This document shows, piece by piece, positions 18,419 through 26,116 of a stretch of DNA of 64,000 nucleotides. Where the stretch lies: the NCBI GenBank assembly GCA_045807285.1, contig JBJMHR010000033.1, positions 66,792 through 130,791 on the forward strand, in the 5' to 3' direction. The notes beneath the pieces were generated by a model. That model was given only the letters and a program-made list of their open reading frames with translations, did no database searches and had not been told where the DNA came from. Made by a program: the position numbers and the translations under genes. Source of the stretch: Actinomycetes bacterium. GTDB lineage: Bacteria > Actinomycetota > Actinomycetes > JAWWOW01. Position 1 is the stretch's first letter, and the number at the start of each line of letters is the position of its first letter.

Positions 18419-18592
18419 CAAGCGCATATGGGCCCGCTCACGACCGGCGTACGACGCACGGCGTCGGCCCGGCGCTGCAGCCGGGCACCCGCGCGGCCAG
18501 GAGTGGGCTCGCGGCGGCGGTCGCGTCCGGGCGCGCGGGTATTGTCCGCGACGACGAGCAACGGACAGCCTGCTGATGAGACGTGGGCCGCA

Positions 18593-19237
18593 GTGAAGGC
18601 GGTGAGTGCGGTCGAGGAGACCAGCGAGCAGCGCGCCGCGCGGTTCGAACGCGACGCGATGCCGTTCCTCGACCAGCTGTACTCCGCAGCGTTGCGGATG
18701 ACGCGCAACCCGGCCGACGCCGAGGACCTCGTACAGGAGACGTTCGTCAAGGCGTTCGCGGCGTTCCATCAGTTCGAGGAAGGCACCAACCTCAAGGCGT
18801 GGCTCTACCGCATCCTGACGAACACCTTCATCAACAACTACCGCAAGGCCCAACGGCAGCCCCTGCAGAGCCCAACTGAGCAGATCGAGGACTGGCAGCT
18901 CGCCGCGGCCGAGGAGCACAGCAGCACCGGCTTGCGCAGCGCCGAGATGGAAGCACTCGACCATCTGCCCGACAGCGACATCAAAGAGGCGTTGCAGTCG
19001 CTGCCCGAAGAGTTCCGGCTCGCGGTCTACCTCGCTGATGTCGAGGGCTTCGCCTACAAAGAGATCGCCGACATCATGGGCACGCCGATCGGCACCGTGA
19101 TGTCGCGGCTGCACCGTGGCCGACGTGGCTTGCGCAAGGCTCTGCAGGGCTACGCCGAGGAGCGCGGGCTCGTGCGCGCCGCGACTGCGACGGATTCCGA
19201 AACTCGTGCCGGCACGGACGGGGAGGGCGGGAAATGA
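18593..19237 (+). CDS. sigH: ECF sigma factor SigH (SigR/SigE-like)
   Basis: Near-collinear with mycobacterial SigH: [40 protein letters not shown]...[20 protein letters not shown]...[15 protein letters not shown] start at 18593, with 18602 as an alternative. Confidence 0.85.
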
Positions 19238-19518
19238 GCTGCGGCGACCCGCACGAGGTGGACTGCCGTGAGGTGCTCGAGCGCGTGTACTTCTACCTCG
19301 ACGGCGAGATCGATGACGACGACTGCGCGCGGATCCGCGATCATCTCGACGAGTGCGCGCCATGCCTGCGCGAGTTCGGTATCGAGCAAGAGGTGAAGGC
19401 CCTCGTCGCGCGTTCGTGTGGATGCGAGACCGCTCCCGAGACGCTCCGCGAGCGCGTCATGCTGCGCATCCAGTCCGTGCGCATCGAGATCGACCACCGC
19501 GAGTTCCGCGCCGACTGA
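19234..19518 (+). CDS. rshA: Anti-sigma factor RshA/RsrA (ZAS family)
   Basis: [38 protein letters not shown] is a zinc-associated anti-sigma H-x3-C-x2-C. Overlaps the sigH stop (ATGA). Confidence 0.8.
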
Positions 19519-19519
19519 C

Positions 19520-20500
19520 ATGACCTCTTGGCTCGTGACCGGCGGTGCCGGCTATATCGGCGCTCACGTCGTTCGCGCGCTCCTCGACGAAGGTGAACGC
19601 GTTGTCGTCATCGACGATCTCTCGACCGGAGCGACCGGTCGTACCGGTACCGCGGCGTTGGTCAACGGCAGCATCCTCGACGAAGATCTGGTTCGTACGA
19701 CGCTGAAGGAACACGCCGTCCAAGGGATCGTGCACATCGCAGCCAAGAAACAGGTGGGGGAGTCGGTCGCCGACCCGCTGTTCTACTACCGCGAGAACGT
19801 CGGCGGTTTGGTCAGTCTCCTGCGCGCGTCCGTCGACGCGGGCGTCGACGCCTTCGTGTTCTCCAGCAGCGCTGCGACGTATGGTCTGCCGCAAACCGCG
19901 GAAGTGACCGAGGACTCGCCGACCATCCCGATCAGTCCATACGGCGAGACGAAGGTGATCGGCGAATGGATCGCGCGTGACGTCGCCAACATCACGAGCA
20001 TGCGCGCGGTCTCACTTCGCTATTTCAACGTCGCGGGGTGCATGGGCCCTGAGCTGGGCGACCCCGGGGTGTTCAACCTCATACCGCTGGTCTTTCAGTC
20101 GCTCGCGAACGGTGAACCGCCACAGGTGTTCGGCGACGACTACCCGACCCATGACGGCACCTGCATTCGCGACTACATCCACGTCGGCGACATCGCGGAC
20201 GCGCACGTTGCGGCGCTCCGCCACCTCGCGGCCGGCGGCGCGTCCGCGACGTACAACATCGGCCGCGGCGAGGGCGTCAGCGTGTACGAGGTGTTGCGAA
20301 CCGTCGAGGACGTCACCGGCATCCCGGTCCGGCCGAAGGTCGTCGCGCGGCGTCCGGGGGACCCGGCGCATGTGGTTGCCGTCGTCGACAAGATCAAGGC
20401 CGAGCTGGGTTGGCAGGCGCGCTACGACCTGCGTGACATGGTCGAGTCTGCGTGGACTGCCTGGGTCGCCCGGCATGGCCGGCCGGCGACCGCCTCTTAA
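19520..20500 (+). CDS. galE: UDP-glucose 4-epimerase
   Basis: MTSWLVTGGAGYIGAHVV Rossmann fold, a YxxxK short-chain dehydrogenase region, and SAATYG. Confidence 0.85.
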   Translation: MTSWLVTGGAGYIGAHVVRALLDEGERVVVIDDLSTGATGRTGTAALVNGSILDEDLVRTTLKEHAVQGIVHIAAKKQVGESVADPLFYYRENVGGLVSLLRASVDAGVDAFVFSSSAATYGLPQTAEVTEDSPTIPISPYGETKVIGEWIARDVANITSMRAVSLRYFNVAGCMGPELGDPGVFNLIPLVFQSLANGEPPQVFGDDYPTHDGTCIRDYIHVGDIADAHVAALRHLAAGGASATYNIGRGEGVSVYEVLRTVEDVTGIPVRPKVVARRPGDPAHVVAVVDKIKAELGWQARYDLRDMVESAWTAWVARHGRPATAS

Positions 20501-20571
20501 GCGTTCGGCCGCTTGCCGTGGTTGGCCTTGCTCTTCTTGCGGGCCTTGCGCTTGCGGGACTTCTTCGCCAT
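20497..20571 (-). CDS. 24-aa highly basic peptide (MAKKSRKRKARKKSKANHGKRPNA); resembles actinobacterial ribosomal protein bL37
   Basis: ATG preceded by GGAG 6 nt upstream. The TAA overlaps the galE stop. The KANHGKRPNA C-terminus matches, from memory, the 24-residue mycobacterial bL37. Below the ORF-track size cutoff. Confidence 0.45.
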   Translation of the reverse strand: MAKKSRKRKARKKSKANHGKRPNA

Positions 20572-20592
20572 CTGCAGCTCCTGCCTCTTGAC

Positions 20593-20620
20593 GGGAATTG
20601 AGTCGAGCGCTATCAATGTT
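20593..20620 (+). promoter_or_regulatory. Putative SigH/SigR-type ECF promoter (GGGAAT-N19-GTT) upstream of hsp20
   Basis: GGGAAT at 20593-20598 and GTT at 20618-20620, about 66 nt upstream of the hsp20 start. Confidence 0.4.
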
Positions 20621-20685
20621 CTTGGTGGTGCAGCCAGCAAGTCGCCCGCTCTGGGAGCCGGGCCCGTCTACCTGGGAGGAGTCAG

Positions 20686-21207
20686 ATGGAGCTGTATCGC
20701 TGGGACCCGTTCACCGCGTTGGAACGTCTGGACCGGCAGTTCGACGACATCGTACGGAAGACATGGGGCCGCTCGGGTGCCGCGCCCGCGGCGGCGGCCA
20801 CCGGGGCCGGCTTCGTCCCGGCCGTGGAGATGGCGCAGGACGGCAGCGACGTCCTCATCAAGCTCGAGTTGCCCGGCATCGACCCGGCGACCGACGTCGA
20901 CGTCTCCGTTCACGAGGGCCGACTGATCGTCAGCGGCGAGCGGCGCGATGTCCGCACCGAAGAGGGCCGCACGACCCTCGTCCGTGAGCTGCGCTACGGC
21001 TCGTTCCGCCGCGAGTTCGCGCTACCGGAGGGCGTCACCCCGGATGACATCGACGCGGGCTACGACAAGGGCCTGCTCGAGCTGCGGCTGAAGAACGTCA
21101 TCAAGCCCGCCGAGCAGCCGCGCAAGATCTCCGTCGCCGTGCGCGGGAACGACACCCCCAAGCAGGTGGAAGGCGAGGTCGAAACGCCCGCGCACAACGC
21201 GAGCTGA
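20686..21207 (+). CDS. Hsp20/alpha-crystallin family small heat-shock protein
   Basis: MELYRWDPFTALERLDRQFDD, the alpha-crystallin domain (GRLIVSGERRD...) and the AGYDKGLLELRL motif. Confidence 0.85.
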   Translation: MELYRWDPFTALERLDRQFDDIVRKTWGRSGAAPAAAATGAGFVPAVEMAQDGSDVLIKLELPGIDPATDVDVSVHEGRLIVSGERRDVRTEEGRTTLVRELRYGSFRREFALPEGVTPDDIDAGYDKGLLELRLKNVIKPAEQPRKISVAVRGNDTPKQVEGEVETPAHNAS

Positions 21208-21222
21208 CGCTTCGCACACTGC

Positions 21223-21248
21223 GAGGGCTCCGGTTCGCCGGGGCCCTC
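21223..21248. terminator. GC-rich hairpin between convergent hsp20 and the downstream hypothetical gene
   Basis: GAGGGCTCCGG-ttcg-CCGGGGCCCTC: an 11-bp stem with one G-U pair, a tetraloop and no U-tract. Confidence 0.3.
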
Positions 21249-21268
21249 GTTGCGCTTGTGGCCTAGCG

Positions 21269-21913
21269 CTAGCCGGCGAGGCGCCGGTTGAGGGCATCGA
21301 GGACGCAGCGCGCGAGCGCGTCGACCTCGTCACTGCGGATCAGTGCACTACCGGTCATGAGCTGTTCGCCTTGCCGAGGGACGGCCAACGTCAGCACGCA
21401 CACCGCGACTGAGCGCCCACCGACCTGTACGACGGCCGCGTGGTCGAGCTCGGCCGGCGTACCGAGCAACTCGCGCAACGCCTCGAGTGTGGCCTGCGCA
21501 ACGAGTCGAGGTCGTGCGGACACGGACGACGACCCCGCCGCCGTGCCCTCGAAGGTCGTGCCGGCGAGTGTCACTGCGATCGTGGTCTCGGCCGCGTCGC
21601 CCGTCGTACGAACGGTGATGCTGGAGACAACGGGGCGCGGTGGTGAGATCTCGCCGTCAGTGCTCGAGTCCTCCGGCTCATCGAACTGCACGACGCTGAC
21701 GATCCGGTGATCGAGGTCGAGGCCATATCGCGCCATCGCCAGCGACTGGATGTCGCGCACGATCTGCTTGGCAGGCTTGCCGGTGCCGGCGAGCACGTGC
21801 ACCTCGGTCGGCACGGCATCGGGTGACGTGACGACGCTGGCCGCTTTGATACCCGGGATCTGGCGCAGCGCATCCTCGAGATCGGGGAGCAGCCGCAGAG
21901 CCGCCATCGTCAC
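21269..21913 (-). CDS. Hypothetical two-domain protein
   Basis: GTG start with GGAAGG 5 nt upstream (ATG at 21907 is the alternative). Begins VTMAALRLLPDLEDALRQIPGIKAASVV. No confident family. Confidence 0.4.
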   Translation of the reverse strand: MTMAALRLLPDLEDALRQIPGIKAASVVTSPDAVPTEVHVLAGTGKPAKQIVRDIQSLAMARYGLDLDHRIVSVVQFDEPEDSSTDGEISPPRPVVSSITVRTTGDAAETTIAVTLAGTTFEGTAAGSSSVSARPRLVAQATLEALRELLGTPAELDHAAVVQVGGRSVAVCVLTLAVPRQGEQLMTGSALIRSDEVDALARCVLDALNRRLAG

Positions 21914-22743
21914 CTGCGTCCTTCCCCACATTCGAAGCTTGCGTGCGTCGCTGGCTCGGTCACGGAGACCCAACCCGCGCGAAGTATCGAGCCCCGCGAG
22001 CCCGAGGACGGGCAGACGGTACGCGCATTGATGTCCCCCCGTGCAATGCCCGGCATCGCGGCATTGTTGTCGTCGGCGTCAAGTCGGCATTCTGGAGCCA
22101 CCCCGCGGCGGAGTGAGGATGCCCCATCCGGCTGGCCAAAGTCACACGCTCCGTAGTCGGCGCCGGTCGCGCGCCGACCGGCTCAATCGCGGCTTCGGAG
22201 CATTCTGCAGATGGACTGCGGCCGTTGGCAGTCATCTGAGCCGCGTTGCTCAATCGGACATCCAAACCCCAGAAGTTCTTTGTTTTGTCAGGGTAGCGGC
22301 GCATTGGCCGCGGCGCCGAATCGGGCATTCGCTTAGTTGCGTGTCGGAAGTTGGCGTTCTCACGCAAGGTCTGACGAAGGGCGTTAATCTTTGTAACAGT
22401 TGAGGCCTCAAGCGTTCCGAGGACTACGACGATGTGAGGGTGATCTTGCGACACGCATGTGGTCACGATTCGTTATGACACTTGACGCGCGTTGACCACA
22501 ACGGTTCACTCCCTTTGCAGGGTTGTGCGGAGCGCACACGAGTCGCTACAGCAGAGCTGGCGGCTTCTCCGTAGCCCAAGGGAACCAAGCCGGTCGCGGG
22601 GTCGGCGCACGTTGACAACTGCAGACGGGTAGATCGGGACCGGCAGGAACTTCTACGGCTTCTCACCAAACCTGAGCGGAGCGGATCCGCGCGAGCGTAG
22701 CGGTGCTCGTGACTTCAGATCCGTTGGGGGGCGATTAGCCAAC

Positions 22744-22809
22744 ATGAAGAAGCTTGCCGCGGTTATCGAACACATCTTTTCCGCCGGTGCCGGCTGGGGC
22801 TGGGGCTGA
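22744..22809 (+). CDS. Candidate 21-codon Trp-rich small ORF (MKKLAAVIEHIFSAGAGWGWG) in the HD-GYP leader
   Basis: ATG...TGA ORF 71 nt upstream of the HD-GYP start. Only a distant G-run could serve as an SD. Confidence 0.2.
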   Translation: MKKLAAVIEHIFSAGAGWGWG

Positions 22810-22880
22810 GCCCCGTCCCGCGTCGGTAGGGCAAATCCCCTGCCGGTCCCGGTCTCCCCGTCTCTTCCCTCAGGAGATCC

Positions 22881-24257
22881 GTGGTGCCCCGCAAGCAGGC
22901 AAGCGTCATCGCGTTCGTCGCGGTGCTGTTTGCGCTGGCGATAACCGGTCTGTTGTTGACCGCCACCCGCTCTGTCCCGTGGTCATCGGTTGCCGCGTTC
23001 ACTGCGCTGTTCTGGCTGTGCGCGTCATTCACGACACGCGTACGCGGTCACATAACGGTGTCGACCAGTTTCGTCGTTGGGCTCGCCGCTGTCTTGGTGG
23101 TTGGCCCCTTCGGCGCTGGCTTGGTGGGTCTGTCCGACGGACTGAAGCACCTGCCAGGAATGCGGCCCATACAACGGCTGTTCAACGCGGCACAAATGAG
23201 CTTGGCGGGGGTGCTGTCGGGGTTAGTTGTACGAGCTTCCTTCAGCGACAACAAGCGCCTACTGCATGCGGGTGCGAGCAGCGCAGCGTTGATCGCCGCC
23301 ACCATTCTTATTGTCTGTGTGTTCCATCTCGTTAACACGTCCCTTGTTGCTGCGGTCGTCTCGCTCGACGAAGGACTGCCCATTCACCGCGTCTGGCGCG
23401 GTAGTCAGTCCTGGGGAAGCGCGGCGTACCTCGCATACGGATTGCTCGGGCTGCTGATGGCCGTTCTCTGGGTGCGGGTCTCGCTGCTAGCGGGCGTCTT
23501 CGTCTTGATCCCGATCCTGGTTGCGCGCCAGACGTTCGCTCAGTACGCAGCCGAGCGTGAGGAGTATGACGCGACGGTGCGTGCCTTGATCCAATCGGTG
23601 GAGACCAAGGACTACTACACGCGTGGGCACTCCGAACGGGTGTCTCGAGCGACAGTTCTGATCGCGCGCGAATGGGGACTGCGCGAAGACCGGGTGAACG
23701 TCATCCGGTACGCCGGTCTCCTGCATGACGTGGGGAAGCTCGGCGTACCGACCAAGGTGTTGCAAAAGCAGGGCAAGCTGAACGACGCGGAGTTCGACGC
23801 GATCAAGCTGCACCCGATGCGCGGCTACGAGATGCTGCGCGAGATCAGGTTTCTTGAAGAAGCGCTGACCGGCGTCGTACACCATCACGAGCGGATGGAT
23901 GGCAAGGGTTATCCGATGGGTCTGGTGGCCGAGGAGATCCCAGAGTTCGCGCGCATCATCATGGTCGCCGACGCTTTCGACTCCATGACGTCGACGCGTT
24001 CATACCGTGCCGCGAAGAACGTCGAGGAAGCGATCACCGAACTGCGCAAGTGGCAGGGCCAACAGTTCGACCCGTACGCCGTCGAGGCGTTGGTACGCGC
24101 GCTCGAGAAGAACGAGTGGGAGCCACACCCCGAGCCCTTCCACGGCGAACTTGTCGCACGCGATGGCTCATTGCTGCCACGTCCAAGCGGCGCGCCGAAC
24201 TCCGAACGGCGGCAGAGAGATACTGCGCCGGGCTCCGAGCCGCGGCAGGTGTCATGA
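22881..24257 (+). CDS. 7TM-receptor HD-GYP phosphohydrolase (likely c-di-GMP phosphodiesterase)
   Basis: N-terminal multi-TM domain. Intact HD-GYP: GHSERVS, LLHDVGK, HHHERMDGKGYP, DAFDSMTSTRSYR. GGAGA RBS. Lower GC and rare codons (ata, tta, att) compared with its neighbours. Confidence 0.8.
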   Translation: MVPRKQASVIAFVAVLFALAITGLLLTATRSVPWSSVAAFTALFWLCASFTTRVRGHITVSTSFVVGLAAVLVVGPFGAGLVGLSDGLKHLPGMRPIQRLFNAAQMSLAGVLSGLVVRASFSDNKRLLHAGASSAALIAATILIVCVFHLVNTSLVAAVVSLDEGLPIHRVWRGSQSWGSAAYLAYGLLGLLMAVLWVRVSLLAGVFVLIPILVARQTFAQYAAEREEYDATVRALIQSVETKDYYTRGHSERVSRATVLIAREWGLREDRVNVIRYAGLLHDVGKLGVPTKVLQKQGKLNDAEFDAIKLHPMRGYEMLREIRFLEEALTGVVHHHERMDGKGYPMGLVAEEIPEFARIIMVADAFDSMTSTRSYRAAKNVEEAITELRKWQGQQFDPYAVEALVRALEKNEWEPHPEPFHGELVARDGSLLPRPSGAPNSERRQRDTAPGSEPRQVS

Positions 24258-25558
24258 CGCAGGTAGATCCACGCGCGTTGCTGCCTATGCGGCGACGTGG
24301 CGACCTCGACCATCCAGGTGCTGGACCACTTACGGCTGTCGCGGCCTTGTTGTCGGTGGCCGCGGTTGCGGAGACGGCAAGCCGCGGGCTCGTGCAGCCG
24401 AGGATCGGCCTCGCGTTCGCGGCGCTCATCGTCGTCGGCGAGATCGTTCGGGTGCGGCTTCCCGGCGATCGCGAACTTGCTCCGGTCGGCGTCGCGGCCG
24501 CCCTTGCCTACGCATTGGTTCTCGACGTCGGCCGGGAGAAAGCCCAGCACAGCGCGTGGCAAGTCGTCGCCGTCACAGCATTCGCAGTGACACTCGGCAG
24601 CCTGCCGCATCTCGCGGCTGGCCGTTCGGCACGTCTTGACGACCTCGCTCGACGCGTGCTGCTCGCGGGCGTCGCCGCGGCGGTATTCCGACCGTTCGCT
24701 AGCCATCTGCGCGGCAACTCGACCACGTTGATCCTCGCCATGCTGGGCGCGGCACTTGTCGCATCCGCAGTCGATGTCGCACTCGCCAGCGTCGTACGCG
24801 CGGCCGGTCAGTTCCGTCGACTGGTCACCGCTGCGCATGACGAGGTGCGCGCAGCAGCGGGCATCGGCCTCGCTATCGGCGCTACTGGAGTGCTCATTGC
24901 GCTGGCCGCGCGCCCGCTCGGTTTGTGGGCGCTACCCGTATTCACTGTGCCGCTGTTGGTGACGCAGATCTCAGTACGCCGGTACGCAGCAATTCGCGCG
25001 ACGTCCCTGCAGACGATTCGCGCCCTGTCGCGGGTGACGGAGGTCGGCGGTTACGTCGAACCCGGCCACTCGCGACGCGTGAGCGCGGTCGCCGTCGCAC
25101 TTGGTCGCGAGTTCGCGCTCAACGAGTCCGACCTCTTGGATCTCGAGTACGCCGCTCTGATGCACGACATCGGCCAACTGTCGTTCAGCGATCCGATTCC
25201 GGGTGGCGCCACACTCGTCGTTGCACCGCCGGAGCGGCGGCGCATCGCCGAGCTCGGTGCCGAAATCATCCGCACGACGGGAACGCTCGAGCGTGTTGCG
25301 GAGATCGTCGAACGACAGGCTGATGCCTATCGCCTCCCCGGAGCGGGAGCAGACGCCGGGCTGCCGTTGTCGAGCCGCATCATCAAGGTTGCGAACGCCT
25401 ACGACGACCTCGTCGGCGACCGCATCGATCGGGCCACGACCGAGGCCGCACTCGAACGGCTCCGGCTCGGCTCGATCTCGGAGTACGACCCACGCGTCGT
25501 CGAGGCACTCGACCGCGTGCTACGCCGCAGCGGTCTCGCGCTGACGCTGATCAGCTAA
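24254..25558 (+). CDS. Degenerate 7TM-HD paralog (HD retained, HHE/GYP motifs lost)
   Basis: Coupled to the upstream gene (ATGA). Has GHSRRVS and ALMHDIGQ, but QADAYRLPGAGADAGLP replaces HHExxDGxGYP. Confidence 0.7.
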   Translation: MTQVDPRALLPMRRRGDLDHPGAGPLTAVAALLSVAAVAETASRGLVQPRIGLAFAALIVVGEIVRVRLPGDRELAPVGVAAALAYALVLDVGREKAQHSAWQVVAVTAFAVTLGSLPHLAAGRSARLDDLARRVLLAGVAAAVFRPFASHLRGNSTTLILAMLGAALVASAVDVALASVVRAAGQFRRLVTAAHDEVRAAAGIGLAIGATGVLIALAARPLGLWALPVFTVPLLVTQISVRRYAAIRATSLQTIRALSRVTEVGGYVEPGHSRRVSAVAVALGREFALNESDLLDLEYAALMHDIGQLSFSDPIPGGATLVVAPPERRRIAELGAEIIRTTGTLERVAEIVERQADAYRLPGAGADAGLPLSSRIIKVANAYDDLVGDRIDRATTEAALERLRLGSISEYDPRVVEALDRVLRRSGLALTLIS

Positions 25559-26116
25559 CTCCGTCTCGTCGCTCGCGCGGCGACGATGCATCCCGGAGAC
25601 GATCAACAACGCGACACCCGACACGATGAGGATGTCGCCGACACTCACGATCTCGGGCCGGCCAGGCAGCGGCACGGGAACAACGTCACTGAACGCGCGT
25701 AACCGCGTATGGCTGTCGGCGATTTCGTGCGTGCTGTCCTCGGCCCGCAGGAGCGAGCCCGCAGGAACGCCCGCGCGGGACTCGGCGTACAACGACACGG
25801 GCATCACGCCATTCGCCGCGATGACAGCGGCGTTGAGCAGAAGCCCGGCTGCCAAGAGCGGTACACCTTCGACGGCGCGGTTGCGCGTGAGCACCGTCAA
25901 CACGCATACCGCAGCCGCGAGCGGACCTCCAACCGCTGCGGCGTAGCCAGCGGCGCCGCCGATCGTCGACAGCATGGCGCCGGCGACGACAGCTGCGATC
26001 GCGACCAATACAACCCGCCATCCACGCATGGGCACGTCCGCGAGTCGCTCCAGCCGCCCGCCGGTTGCCCAGCCGACGAGGATCGCGCCGACGGTGACAG
26101 AGAGCAGAAGAGCCAC
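25520..26116 (-). CDS. Hypothetical membrane protein
   Basis: Multiple hydrophobic helices. Converges on the HD paralog with a 39-nt overlap. Start uncertain. Confidence 0.4.
   Translation of the reverse strand: MALLLSVTVGAILVGWATGGRLERLADVPMRGWRVVLVAIAAVVAGAMLSTIGGAAGYAAAVGGPLAAAVCVLTVLTRNRAVEGVPLLAAGLLLNAAVIAANGVMPVSLYAESRAGVPAGSLLRAEDSTHEIADSHTRLRAFSDVVPVPLPGRPEIVSVGDILIVSGVALLIVSGMHRRRASDETELADQRQRETAAA

Follow-up and report, generated by a model that had tools for sequence, protein, structure and literature searches.

The HdgA protein of Streptomyces venezuelae is a six-transmembrane MASE9-HD-GYP protein encoded in an operon with the degenerate HdgB (vnz24090/vnz24095) (PMC6205966). It is membrane-bound, ranks among the least expressed enzymes of cyclic di-GMP (c-di-GMP) metabolism and shows no phenotype, and the authors of that study suspect that an activating signal is missing (PMC6205966). 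The MASE9 domain probably senses a ligand within the membrane (10.1101/2021.11.05.467447), and neither of the two papers describes a leader RNA or an upstream micro open reading frame (micro-ORF) (PMC6205966; 10.1101/2021.11.05.467447). A comparable gene pair, a six-transmembrane HD-GYP gene followed by a degenerate HD-GYP gene, is present in a stretch of 64,000 nucleotides from contig JBJMHR010000033.1 of an Actinomycetes bacterium (hereafter the window), where MASE9 is found in relatives of the window protein and sigH/rshA-type genes lie nearby. The hdgA-like gene, with a GTG start at 22881 (or at 22884, the alternative implied by the 457-residue NCBI product), is separated by a 971-bp gap (interval 21908-22880) from the ATG at 21907 of p212, a minus-strand gene for a protein of 212 residues. 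To judge from the sequence, the gap is very likely a composite of a pseudogene (21910-22328, minus strand), a divergent control spacer (22329-22611) and a structured leader (22612-22880, plus strand). The explanation of the whole as a dead gene, a shared control region and a leader RNA with a micro-ORF for hdgA-hdgB is, on balance, probable.

Probable structured leader RNA and embedded micro-ORF

A preliminary description of this DNA had treated the gap of about 0.97 kb as non-coding throughout, without a credible protein, and had listed a long structured 5' leader or riboswitch among the possible explanations. The gap and the stop codons in every frame (4-10 in each of the six) are as described, and the leader suggestion fits the last ~270 bp (22612-22880), which carry two covarying helices and invariant unpaired motifs and end 16 nt before the HD-GYP start; it does not fit the rest. 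The interval is not uniformly non-coding, being made up of three parts, and in one respect the denial of a protein was wrong, as a 21-codon ORF at 22744-22809 has been maintained as coding sequence across some 70 related loci. Because this conserved micro-ORF lies within it, the leader is not purely non-coding. The most conspicuous feature of the interval, a 25-nt inverted repeat (22623-22647 / 22839-22863), had been missed. The parts of the leader and the evidence for each are as follows.

22612-22880, plus strand: probable structured leader reaching the hdgA-like HD-GYP gene (covarying helices)
22623-22647, plus strand: 5' strand of helix P1, AGACGGGTAGATCGGGACCGGCAGG (inverted repeat, fold, covariation)
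22669-22749, plus strand: conserved 81-nt core with AGCGGAGCGGA (22675-22685), hairpin P2, GUGAC, a G-rich ribosome-binding site (22726-22731) and AUG (22744) (covariance model R1)
22690-22711, plus strand: P2 hairpin, arms CGCGAGC (22690-22696) and GCTCGTG (22705-22711), loop GUAGCGGU (covariation)
22744-22809, plus strand: 21-codon ORF MKKLAAVIEHIFSAGAGWGWG and stop, predicted micro-protein gene (coding-type conservation)
22839-22863, plus strand: 3' strand of helix P1, CCTGCCGGTCCCGGTCTCCCCGTCT (inverted repeat, fold, covariation)
22864-22883, plus strand: pyrimidine-rich linker, ribosome-binding site AGGAG (22872-22876) and GTG start (22881 or 22884) (same layout in 55 loci)

The P1 helix comprises 25 nt of 92% complementarity, with arms that lie 191 nt apart and bracket the ORF. 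It pairs a site 121 nt 5' of the micro-ORF with a site 29 nt 3' of it and thus encloses both the 81-nt core and the ORF. The minimum free energy of 22620-22885 (266 nt) is -133.7 kcal/mol (z = -4.05), with P1 as the closing stem, whereas the minus strand folds less well (z = -3.05). An equivalent helix of 20-33 bp, differing in its outer sequence, flanks the ORF in nearly every locus and beats all 20 shuffles in 66 of 72 loci. Inside the helix, the invariant unpaired motifs of the core are AGCGGAGCGGA and the hairpin loop UAGCGG, the distance from AGCG to the AUG is constant across loci at 75-87 nt, and the short motif AGCGG occurs three times in the element.

Covariation was evaluated in an alignment of 41 elements (A2), using 500 shuffles and a sliding control in which pairing partners were shifted by 1-3 columns; a first global MAFFT alignment of untrimmed elements was too gappy and was not used. 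RNAalifold recovers P1 and P2 from A2, and 98.1% of the cells in the two helices are paired compared with 36-45% for slid partners. Compensatory changes are present in 20 of the 29 P1 and P2 pairs (138 cells), for example at columns 21-386 (GC 15, AU 14, UA 10) and 30-377 (UA 20, CG 13, UG 7), and none of the 500 shuffles reaches any observed measure. For P2 by itself, six of seven pairs show compensatory changes with 99% of cells paired in A2, and 92.3% of cells are paired (28-51% when slid) among 82 distinct sequences including Clostridia, in an alignment fitted to the model. The helices contain 54 G.U cells and five A.C cells and therefore belong to the plus-strand RNA, not to the DNA or to the minus strand. 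Taken together, the covariation data indicate that an RNA structure is under selection on the plus strand. A search of the whole alignment for further covarying pairs yielded only scattered ones beyond P1 and P2. In low-GC versions of the element, the stretch that separates the ribosome-binding site from the AUG is covered by a further helix of 8 bp. A K-turn in the internal loop of P2 was considered and rejected, as the non-bulged strand does not have the GA.

The element is widely distributed. Genomes of Frankiales, Acidothermaceae, Nanopelagicales, Sporichthyaceae and Motilibacteraceae served as relatives for comparison, and in a BLAST search of 22300-22880 against the fetched loci the segment 22670-22810 aligns at 62-76% identity in more than 50 genomes, in which the flanking proteins are only 50-60% identical. 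The covariance model R1, built on the core with the window as a training member, has a single match in the window (63.6 bits, E 2.9e-12) and recognises a single site per locus in 86 of the 100 sources, with scores of up to 82 bits in held-out loci and of 30-48 bits in low-GC loci. Every held-out match has, after its AUG, a coding sequence for a member of the same peptide family, and the long-range helix flanks most of these matches. The low-GC group consists of Clostridia (Caproiciproducens, Oscillospiraceae, Lachnoclostridium, Carboxydocella), where p212 shares the strand of the element and immediately precedes it (order p212, RNA/ORF, HD-GYP gene); the 5' strand of P1 begins ~24 nt after the p212 stop. 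Cultivable carriers of the module include the Acidothermaceae isolate B102 and Caproiciproducens faecalis. In every case the micro-ORF precedes the HD-GYP gene and shares its strand; the HD-GYP start, preceded by CUUCCCC-AGGAG, follows P1 by a median of 28 nt (55 loci) and by 16 nt in the window. Core, ORF and helix recur together beside homologues of both flanking genes in ~90 fetched loci from Actinomycetota and Clostridia, which indicates that the association of the element with p212 and the MASE9 HD-GYP gene is obligatory over a very long evolutionary distance.

Homologues of the ORF in 75 loci provide 72 distinct coding sequences and 64 distinct peptides. They start with ATG (65), GTG (4) or TTG (3), use the three stop codons about equally, extend over 19-27 codons and contain 12-nt insertions or deletions that stay in frame. 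Differences per codon position are 0.36, 0.29 and 0.46, the third position varying most, and the synonymous fraction is 0.23 in frame compared with 0.13-0.16 in shifted frames. This pattern of substitution indicates that the micro-ORF evolves as a protein. The RNA core is more conserved than the peptide, and the conservation of an antisense ORF (MCSITAASFF...) merely mirrors that of the sense ORF. In the actinobacterial class, K3, V8, E9, L12, W18 and W20 are nearly invariant, with W18 and W20, located just before the stop, conserved best. Two loci, L086 (2685-2763) and L049 (3315-3389), have an intact RNA core and a micro-ORF without its usual stop, through a frameshift or a lost stop codon, and may be natural knock-outs or sequencing errors.

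The peptides vary in character between lineages. Clostridia-type and some high-GC homologues have a lysine-rich start, ~18 hydrophobic residues, an AGGA motif and an aromatic-basic end, and many held-out homologues are plainly transmembrane-like, such as MKKIWASVLTLLMSLISLLLAGGALFSFR and MAKVVSVLLSLMALVLAGGAGWSWK. The peptides of the window and its clade are amphipathic with an invariant Glu9, and actinobacterial peptides contain Glu, Gln and Ser. Searches of Pfam and NCBIfam with six members of the family returned no credible match, and an exact look-up of eight member peptides in a collection of 15 billion proteins found none of them. The homologues thus appear to form an unannotated family of peptides of 20-31 residues that is missed by gene callers.

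Pseudogene, putative control region and neighbouring genes

The preliminary description had given the interval a GC content of about 52% in a background of about 70%, where the measured values are 62.7% for 21914-22880 and 67.7% for the window, and only 22201-22550 drops to ~55%, the lowest 300-nt value in the window. The alignment across related genomes that it had suggested shows the region to be orthologous, with 63-80% identity in relatives. The features of the left and middle parts are the following, those without orientation being marked as unstranded.

21910-22328, minus strand: pseudogene remnant of a gene for 168-192 residues (homology to the intact gene in relatives)
22290-22295, minus strand: TACCCT, -10-like (TANNNT), invariant in all six aligned relatives amid variable surroundings
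22329-22611, unstranded: putative divergent promoter/operator spacer, GC minimum 58.3% (conserved blocks in close relatives)
22421-22443, unstranded: conserved block GGACTACGACGATGnGAGGGTGA (alignment A4)
22461-22513, unstranded: conserved 53-bp block GGTCACGATTCGTTATGACACTTGACGcgcgTTGACCACAACGGTTCACTCC holding two TTGAC motifs (alignment A4)
22463-22475, unstranded: TCACgattcGTTA, fitting the loose BldD-box pattern TNAC-N5-GTNA and kept in four of six close relatives
22589-22622, plus strand: conserved 5' flank of the element, GCCGGTCGCGGGGTCGGCGCACGTTGACAACTGC (alignments of relatives)

In the relatives L001/L002, L004 and L005 an intact gene for 168-192 residues, with a conserved core RTLRWWQRESVRGVRDHL and the C-terminus EGRR*, lies directly upstream of p212 and overlaps it. 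In tblastn comparisons the C-terminal third of the intact gene matches 22119-21913 at 39% identity (E 7.7e-6), the N-terminal part has a weak match at 22328-22143 in a different frame, and the conserved core is missing from the window; in a DNA alignment (A4, comprising the window, L004, L005, L010, L048 and L001), ~120 columns are absent from the window. These remains indicate that 21910-22328 is a pseudogene whose core has been deleted and whose leftover pieces are out of frame. The closest relatives, which come from other samples, are also decayed, L010 being frameshifted and L048 having lost the core, and the damage therefore reflects decay at the level of the lineage, not an assembly error. 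A minus-strand ORF of 168 residues (21960-22466) was rejected as a real gene, since it is a chimera of out-of-frame remnants with a GC content at third codon positions of 0.65 compared with 0.82 and 0.77 in the flanking genes.

The palindrome and short repeats to which the preliminary description had drawn attention lie inside this decaying pseudogene. The palindrome GCCGGTCG-cgcgc-CGACCGGC is present at 22162-22182 and the element GCTCAATCG is indeed repeated, at 22181 and 22248; GGCATTC has two copies (22086 and 22324) rather than three, the third being GCATTC only (22200). Repeated 9-mers number eight in the gap against a mean of 3.0 and a maximum of 13 in shuffles, which places the short repeats near chance. 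The idea of an inserted element is wrong in kind, as the left 420 bp derive from a resident gene of which relatives still have an intact copy.

The segment 22329-22611 is putatively the control region shared by two divergent transcription units. TACCCT at 22290-22295 is a candidate -10 element of the minus-strand operon, a role suggested by its consensus. The TTGAC motifs reported at 22482, 22492 and 22612 are present as placed. At the last of these, (TT)GACAACU (22612-22620) is fixed 19-20 nt ahead of the P1 core in almost all loci (~55), with no conserved -10 on either side, and no -10-like hexamer was found 16-18 nt after the TTGACA at 22612; the motif may serve as a -35 box or a processing site, or may belong to the RNA. 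The upstream sequence GCCGGTCGCG (22589-22598) is complementary to 22635-22644 in the core of the P1 5' strand (10 nt, 90%), less so in close relatives, and because it resembles the 3' strand of P1 an alternative anti-P1 helix may form. A sigma-WhiG-like -10 (GCCGAT) in the P1 3' strand was discarded for want of a TAAA -35 at the right spacing. The match at 22463-22475 to the BldD-box pattern TNAC-N5-GTNA is a lead only. As only six bases are specified, the match is at chance level by itself; a genuine site would tie the operon to c-di-GMP/BldD control.

The genes around the interval are listed below.

21272-21907, minus strand: p212, conserved protein of 212 residues, always adjoining the RNA element even where gene order differs (Clostridia)
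22881-24257, plus strand: membrane HD-GYP protein, hdgA-like (Pfam HD_5 and HD; MASE9 and HD_5 in relatives)
24254-25558: second, degenerate HD gene, hdgB-like, overlapping the end of the HD-GYP gene (context)
25520-26116, minus strand: DUF5317 membrane protein gene, converging on the hdgB-like gene (context)

The p212 protein belongs to no Pfam family and is encoded in at least 589 species genomes. Its AlphaFold model (predicted local distance difference test score 84) has two beta-beta-beta-alpha repeats, the C-terminal half resembling the amino-acid-binding regulatory domain of LeuA/citramalate synthase. A role for p212 as a double-stranded-RNA-binding protein was set aside, Foldseek matches to such domains having TM scores of ~0.2 and the match to the LeuA regulatory domain being the sole supported one. 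The trio of HD-GYP gene, degenerate HD gene and DUF5317 gene is also found in the relatives L001 and L004. On the other side of p212 are sigH/rshA-like genes, galE and Hsp20. A SigH/SigR-type extracytoplasmic function sigma factor and a zf-HC2 anti-sigma factor (RshA/RsrA-like, HxxxCxxC) are encoded at 18428-19518, two genes from the element, the same adjacency as in S. coelicolor, where sigR-rsrA adjoins an HD-GYP gene. An easily missed micro-gene may also be present on the minus strand at 20500-20571, where a 24-codon ORF, MAKKSRKRKARKKSKANHGKRPNA, lies inside a listed ORF of 47 residues (20497-20640) and looks like the tiny actinobacterial ribosomal protein bL37. For annotation the interval is a caution, as a 1-kb gap that looked empty proved to accommodate a gene and an RNA element beside a pseudogene and a putative regulatory spacer.

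Candidate mechanism and rival explanations

The element is most likely a cis-regulatory leader together with a micro-protein that is co-expressed with the membrane HD-GYP enzyme. The core would serve as the sensor, its invariant AGCGGAGCGGA and UAGCGG motifs binding either a small ligand or the product of the neighbouring p212, which is a candidate trans-factor for the triple AGCGG motif. Binding would open or close the start region of the micro-ORF, its ribosome-binding site and AUG. Translation of this ORF and the state of P1, which could act as a clamp, an RNase III target or a terminator-like helix before the hdgA ribosome-binding site, would then set the expression of hdgA-hdgB. The peptide would be made with the enzyme, insert in or at the membrane and act on the MASE9 domain of HdgA; the features behind this proposal are the lysine-rich N-terminus, the hydrophobic or amphipathic helix, the small-residue AGGA/SGAG motif and the C-terminal Trp. 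This regulatory logic, from core to micro-ORF and P1 to hdgA-hdgB with the peptide acting on MASE9, is put forward tentatively, as a course of events that is possible and falls short of being probable.

Several observations weigh against it. The distance from the ORF stop to the 3' strand of P1 varies from 1 to 90 nt across loci (29 nt in the window), so melting of P1 by the terminating ribosome, as a simple model would have it, cannot apply to all of them. The window peptide, with Glu and His in a chain of 21 residues, is a poor transmembrane helix alone. The high-GC equivalent of the low-GC spacer helix, P2a, which would link the core to the ribosome-binding site, is weak (4.45 bp compared with 3.75 bp in shuffles), and alignment A5, having been fitted to the model, favours structure. 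A scan for consensus sigma-70 promoters found no site, and the sole terminator-like site returned by a terminator scan is inside hdgA. Lastly, the TTGACA at 22612 is readable as a -35 box, which would put the transcription start inside P1 and exclude its 5' strand from the RNA.

A wider proposal is that the 81-nt core, with AGCGGAGCGGA and the UAGCGG loop, is the sensor of a new and ancient class of RNA switch, spread over Actinomycetota and Clostridia, which binds a small ligand (e.g., a cyclic or linear dinucleotide handled by HD-GYP) or ligand-loaded p212 and gates a membrane micro-protein that serves the MASE9 HD-GYP phosphodiesterase as subunit or activator. This is speculative, and we hold it to be somewhat doubtful. 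If true, the RNA switch and the micro-protein would supply the missing activating signal for HdgA-type enzymes, and the element may explain how a poorly understood c-di-GMP enzyme is switched on. As HdgA-type MASE9 HD-GYP enzymes are widespread, the conserved RNA and micro-protein are candidates for their control.

The first alternative is an independent small gene, that is, a stable and possibly dual-function RNA of ~240 nt whose termini are marked by P1, which encodes the micro-protein, may act in trans and merely adjoins hdgA. A closing helix formed from the two ends is typical of stable small RNAs, the RNA core is conserved more than the peptide and, in Clostridia-type loci only, a U-tract follows the 3' strand of P1, as in an intrinsic terminator. 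The strict synteny with one copy per locus argues in the other direction. So does the spacing. The HD-GYP start follows P1 too closely (median 28 nt, 16 nt here) for a separate promoter to fit between them, and the clostridial element, with its P1 5' strand starting ~24 nt after the p212 stop, looks intercistronic. We regard an independent small gene as unlikely.

It is also unlikely that the ORF is a regulatory leader peptide only, an attenuator or arrest peptide resembling trpL or TnaC whose Trp codons or W-x-W would sense charged tRNA-Trp or stall the ribosome and thereby control P1 and hdgA. The loci show no apparent connection with Trp metabolism, and many homologues have no W-x-W while keeping the physico-chemistry of a membrane peptide (e.g., MKKIWASVLTLLMSLISLLLAGGALFSFR). 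The best conserved residues, W18 and W20, fall next to the stop, as such a peptide would have it, and in ~45% of the loci the stop is at most 15 nt from the 3' strand of P1, within reach of a terminating ribosome; elsewhere that distance extends up to 90 nt.

With its short peptide, hydrophobic in many lineages, and a long-range helix that encloses the cistron, with structure around its ribosome-binding site, the element could be compared to a type I toxin-antitoxin module in which 5'-3' fold-back keeps the mRNA untranslatable, as in hok. Type I loci are mobile and multi-copy, whereas this element has a single copy that keeps strict synteny with p212 and hdgA in both phyla. No feature of an antisense RNA was noticed, and nothing suggests selection for structure on the minus strand, which has the poorer z score (-3.05 compared with -4.05); G.U cells far outnumber A.C cells. 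The actinobacterial peptides are amphipathic with Glu, Gln and Ser. A toxin module is highly improbable.

An inert AT-rich spacer or an Lsr2-type xenogeneic-silencer platform on foreign DNA, the latter raised in the preliminary description, could claim the GC minimum of ~55% at 22201-22550. The whole interval is, however, only five points under the window mean, and the region is syntenic, alignable and orthologous in relatives at 63-80% identity, without foreign character; conservation of the right third across phyla excludes an inert spacer, and this reading as a whole is very improbable. Least credible of all is a DNA-level element, either an invertible promoter switch or a miniature transposon remnant with the 25-bp inverted repeats as recombination sites, for although the repeats flank ~190 bp just upstream of a gene, the segment has the same orientation relative to hdgA in every one of the more than 70 loci examined, the arms tolerate G.U and not A.C (54 cells compared with five) as expected of RNA pairing and differ between species yet stay complementary at the orthologous site, and no recombinase was called in the neighbourhoods listed. 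Fixed synteny, orientation and G.U asymmetry indicate that the type I toxin and DNA inversion readings are both contradicted.

Comparison with known systems

The element matches no Rfam family. With Rfam 15, cmscan of 20000-25000 at E<=1 returned only a COG2908 match inside hdgA, the whole window at the gathering score gave one tRNA only, and five related loci gave nothing at the element. The COG2908 RNA match (24133-24168, in the HD-GYP coding region) was dismissed as chance, with 18.7 bits compared with a gathering score of 58.7 and an E value of 0.27. No paper in the literature searched describes the element either.

Ms1 and 6S RNA are also structured RNAs of a few hundred nucleotides in long actinobacterial intergenic regions. 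The synteny of Ms1 consists of a HAD-IB hydrolase and an oxidoreductase (PMC9130861). Here the flanks are p212 and the HD-GYP gene, Rfam gave no 6S match and the element holds a translated-looking ORF, and identity with Ms1 or 6S RNA was rejected. The hok fold-back and the RNase III stems that flank rRNAs or the pnp leader provide a parallel to P1, as in the element a ~25-bp duplex between distant 5' and 3' segments encloses a functional unit; unlike hok, the locus is chromosomal and syntenic.

With trpL and tnaC the element shares a leader ORF with Trp beside its stop, and a strong helix that separates this ORF from the structural gene. It differs from them in that the partner strand of the helix lies 5' of the ORF and does not overlap it, and in that the peptide family is membrane-helix-like. 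The Trp codons beside the stop occur in most actinobacterial members and not in many others, and no alternative terminator/antiterminator hairpins overlapping the ORF were identified.

The peptide is reminiscent of KdpF (kdpFABC), CydX and MgrB-PhoQ, having 20-31 residues that run from a basic N-terminus through a hydrophobic helix to an aromatic end, and being encoded on the same strand directly upstream of a polytopic membrane sensor enzyme. It has no sequence relationship with these proteins, and the KdpF, CydX and MgrB genes are not known to sit inside a conserved RNA structure.

The RNA itself can be compared with translational riboswitches and protein-binding leaders such as the TRAP and HutP sites, as a covarying structured core with invariant unpaired nucleotides immediately precedes, at a fixed spacing, a ribosome-binding site and AUG. 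As in the TRAP and HutP sites, a short motif (AGCGG) is repeated, here three times, and the co-occurring p212 has a predicted fold resembling that of an amino-acid sensor. Unlike leaders that sequester the ribosome-binding site, and without an Rfam match, the element would directly control a 21-codon ORF, with the whole unit inside a 25-bp helix. The element thus appears undescribed but of known kinds, a leader RNA and a micro-protein, combined in an unusual architecture in which a cistron is held inside a 25-bp long-range helix behind an aptamer-like core, and it would add to these systems a structured RNA family with very strong covariation.

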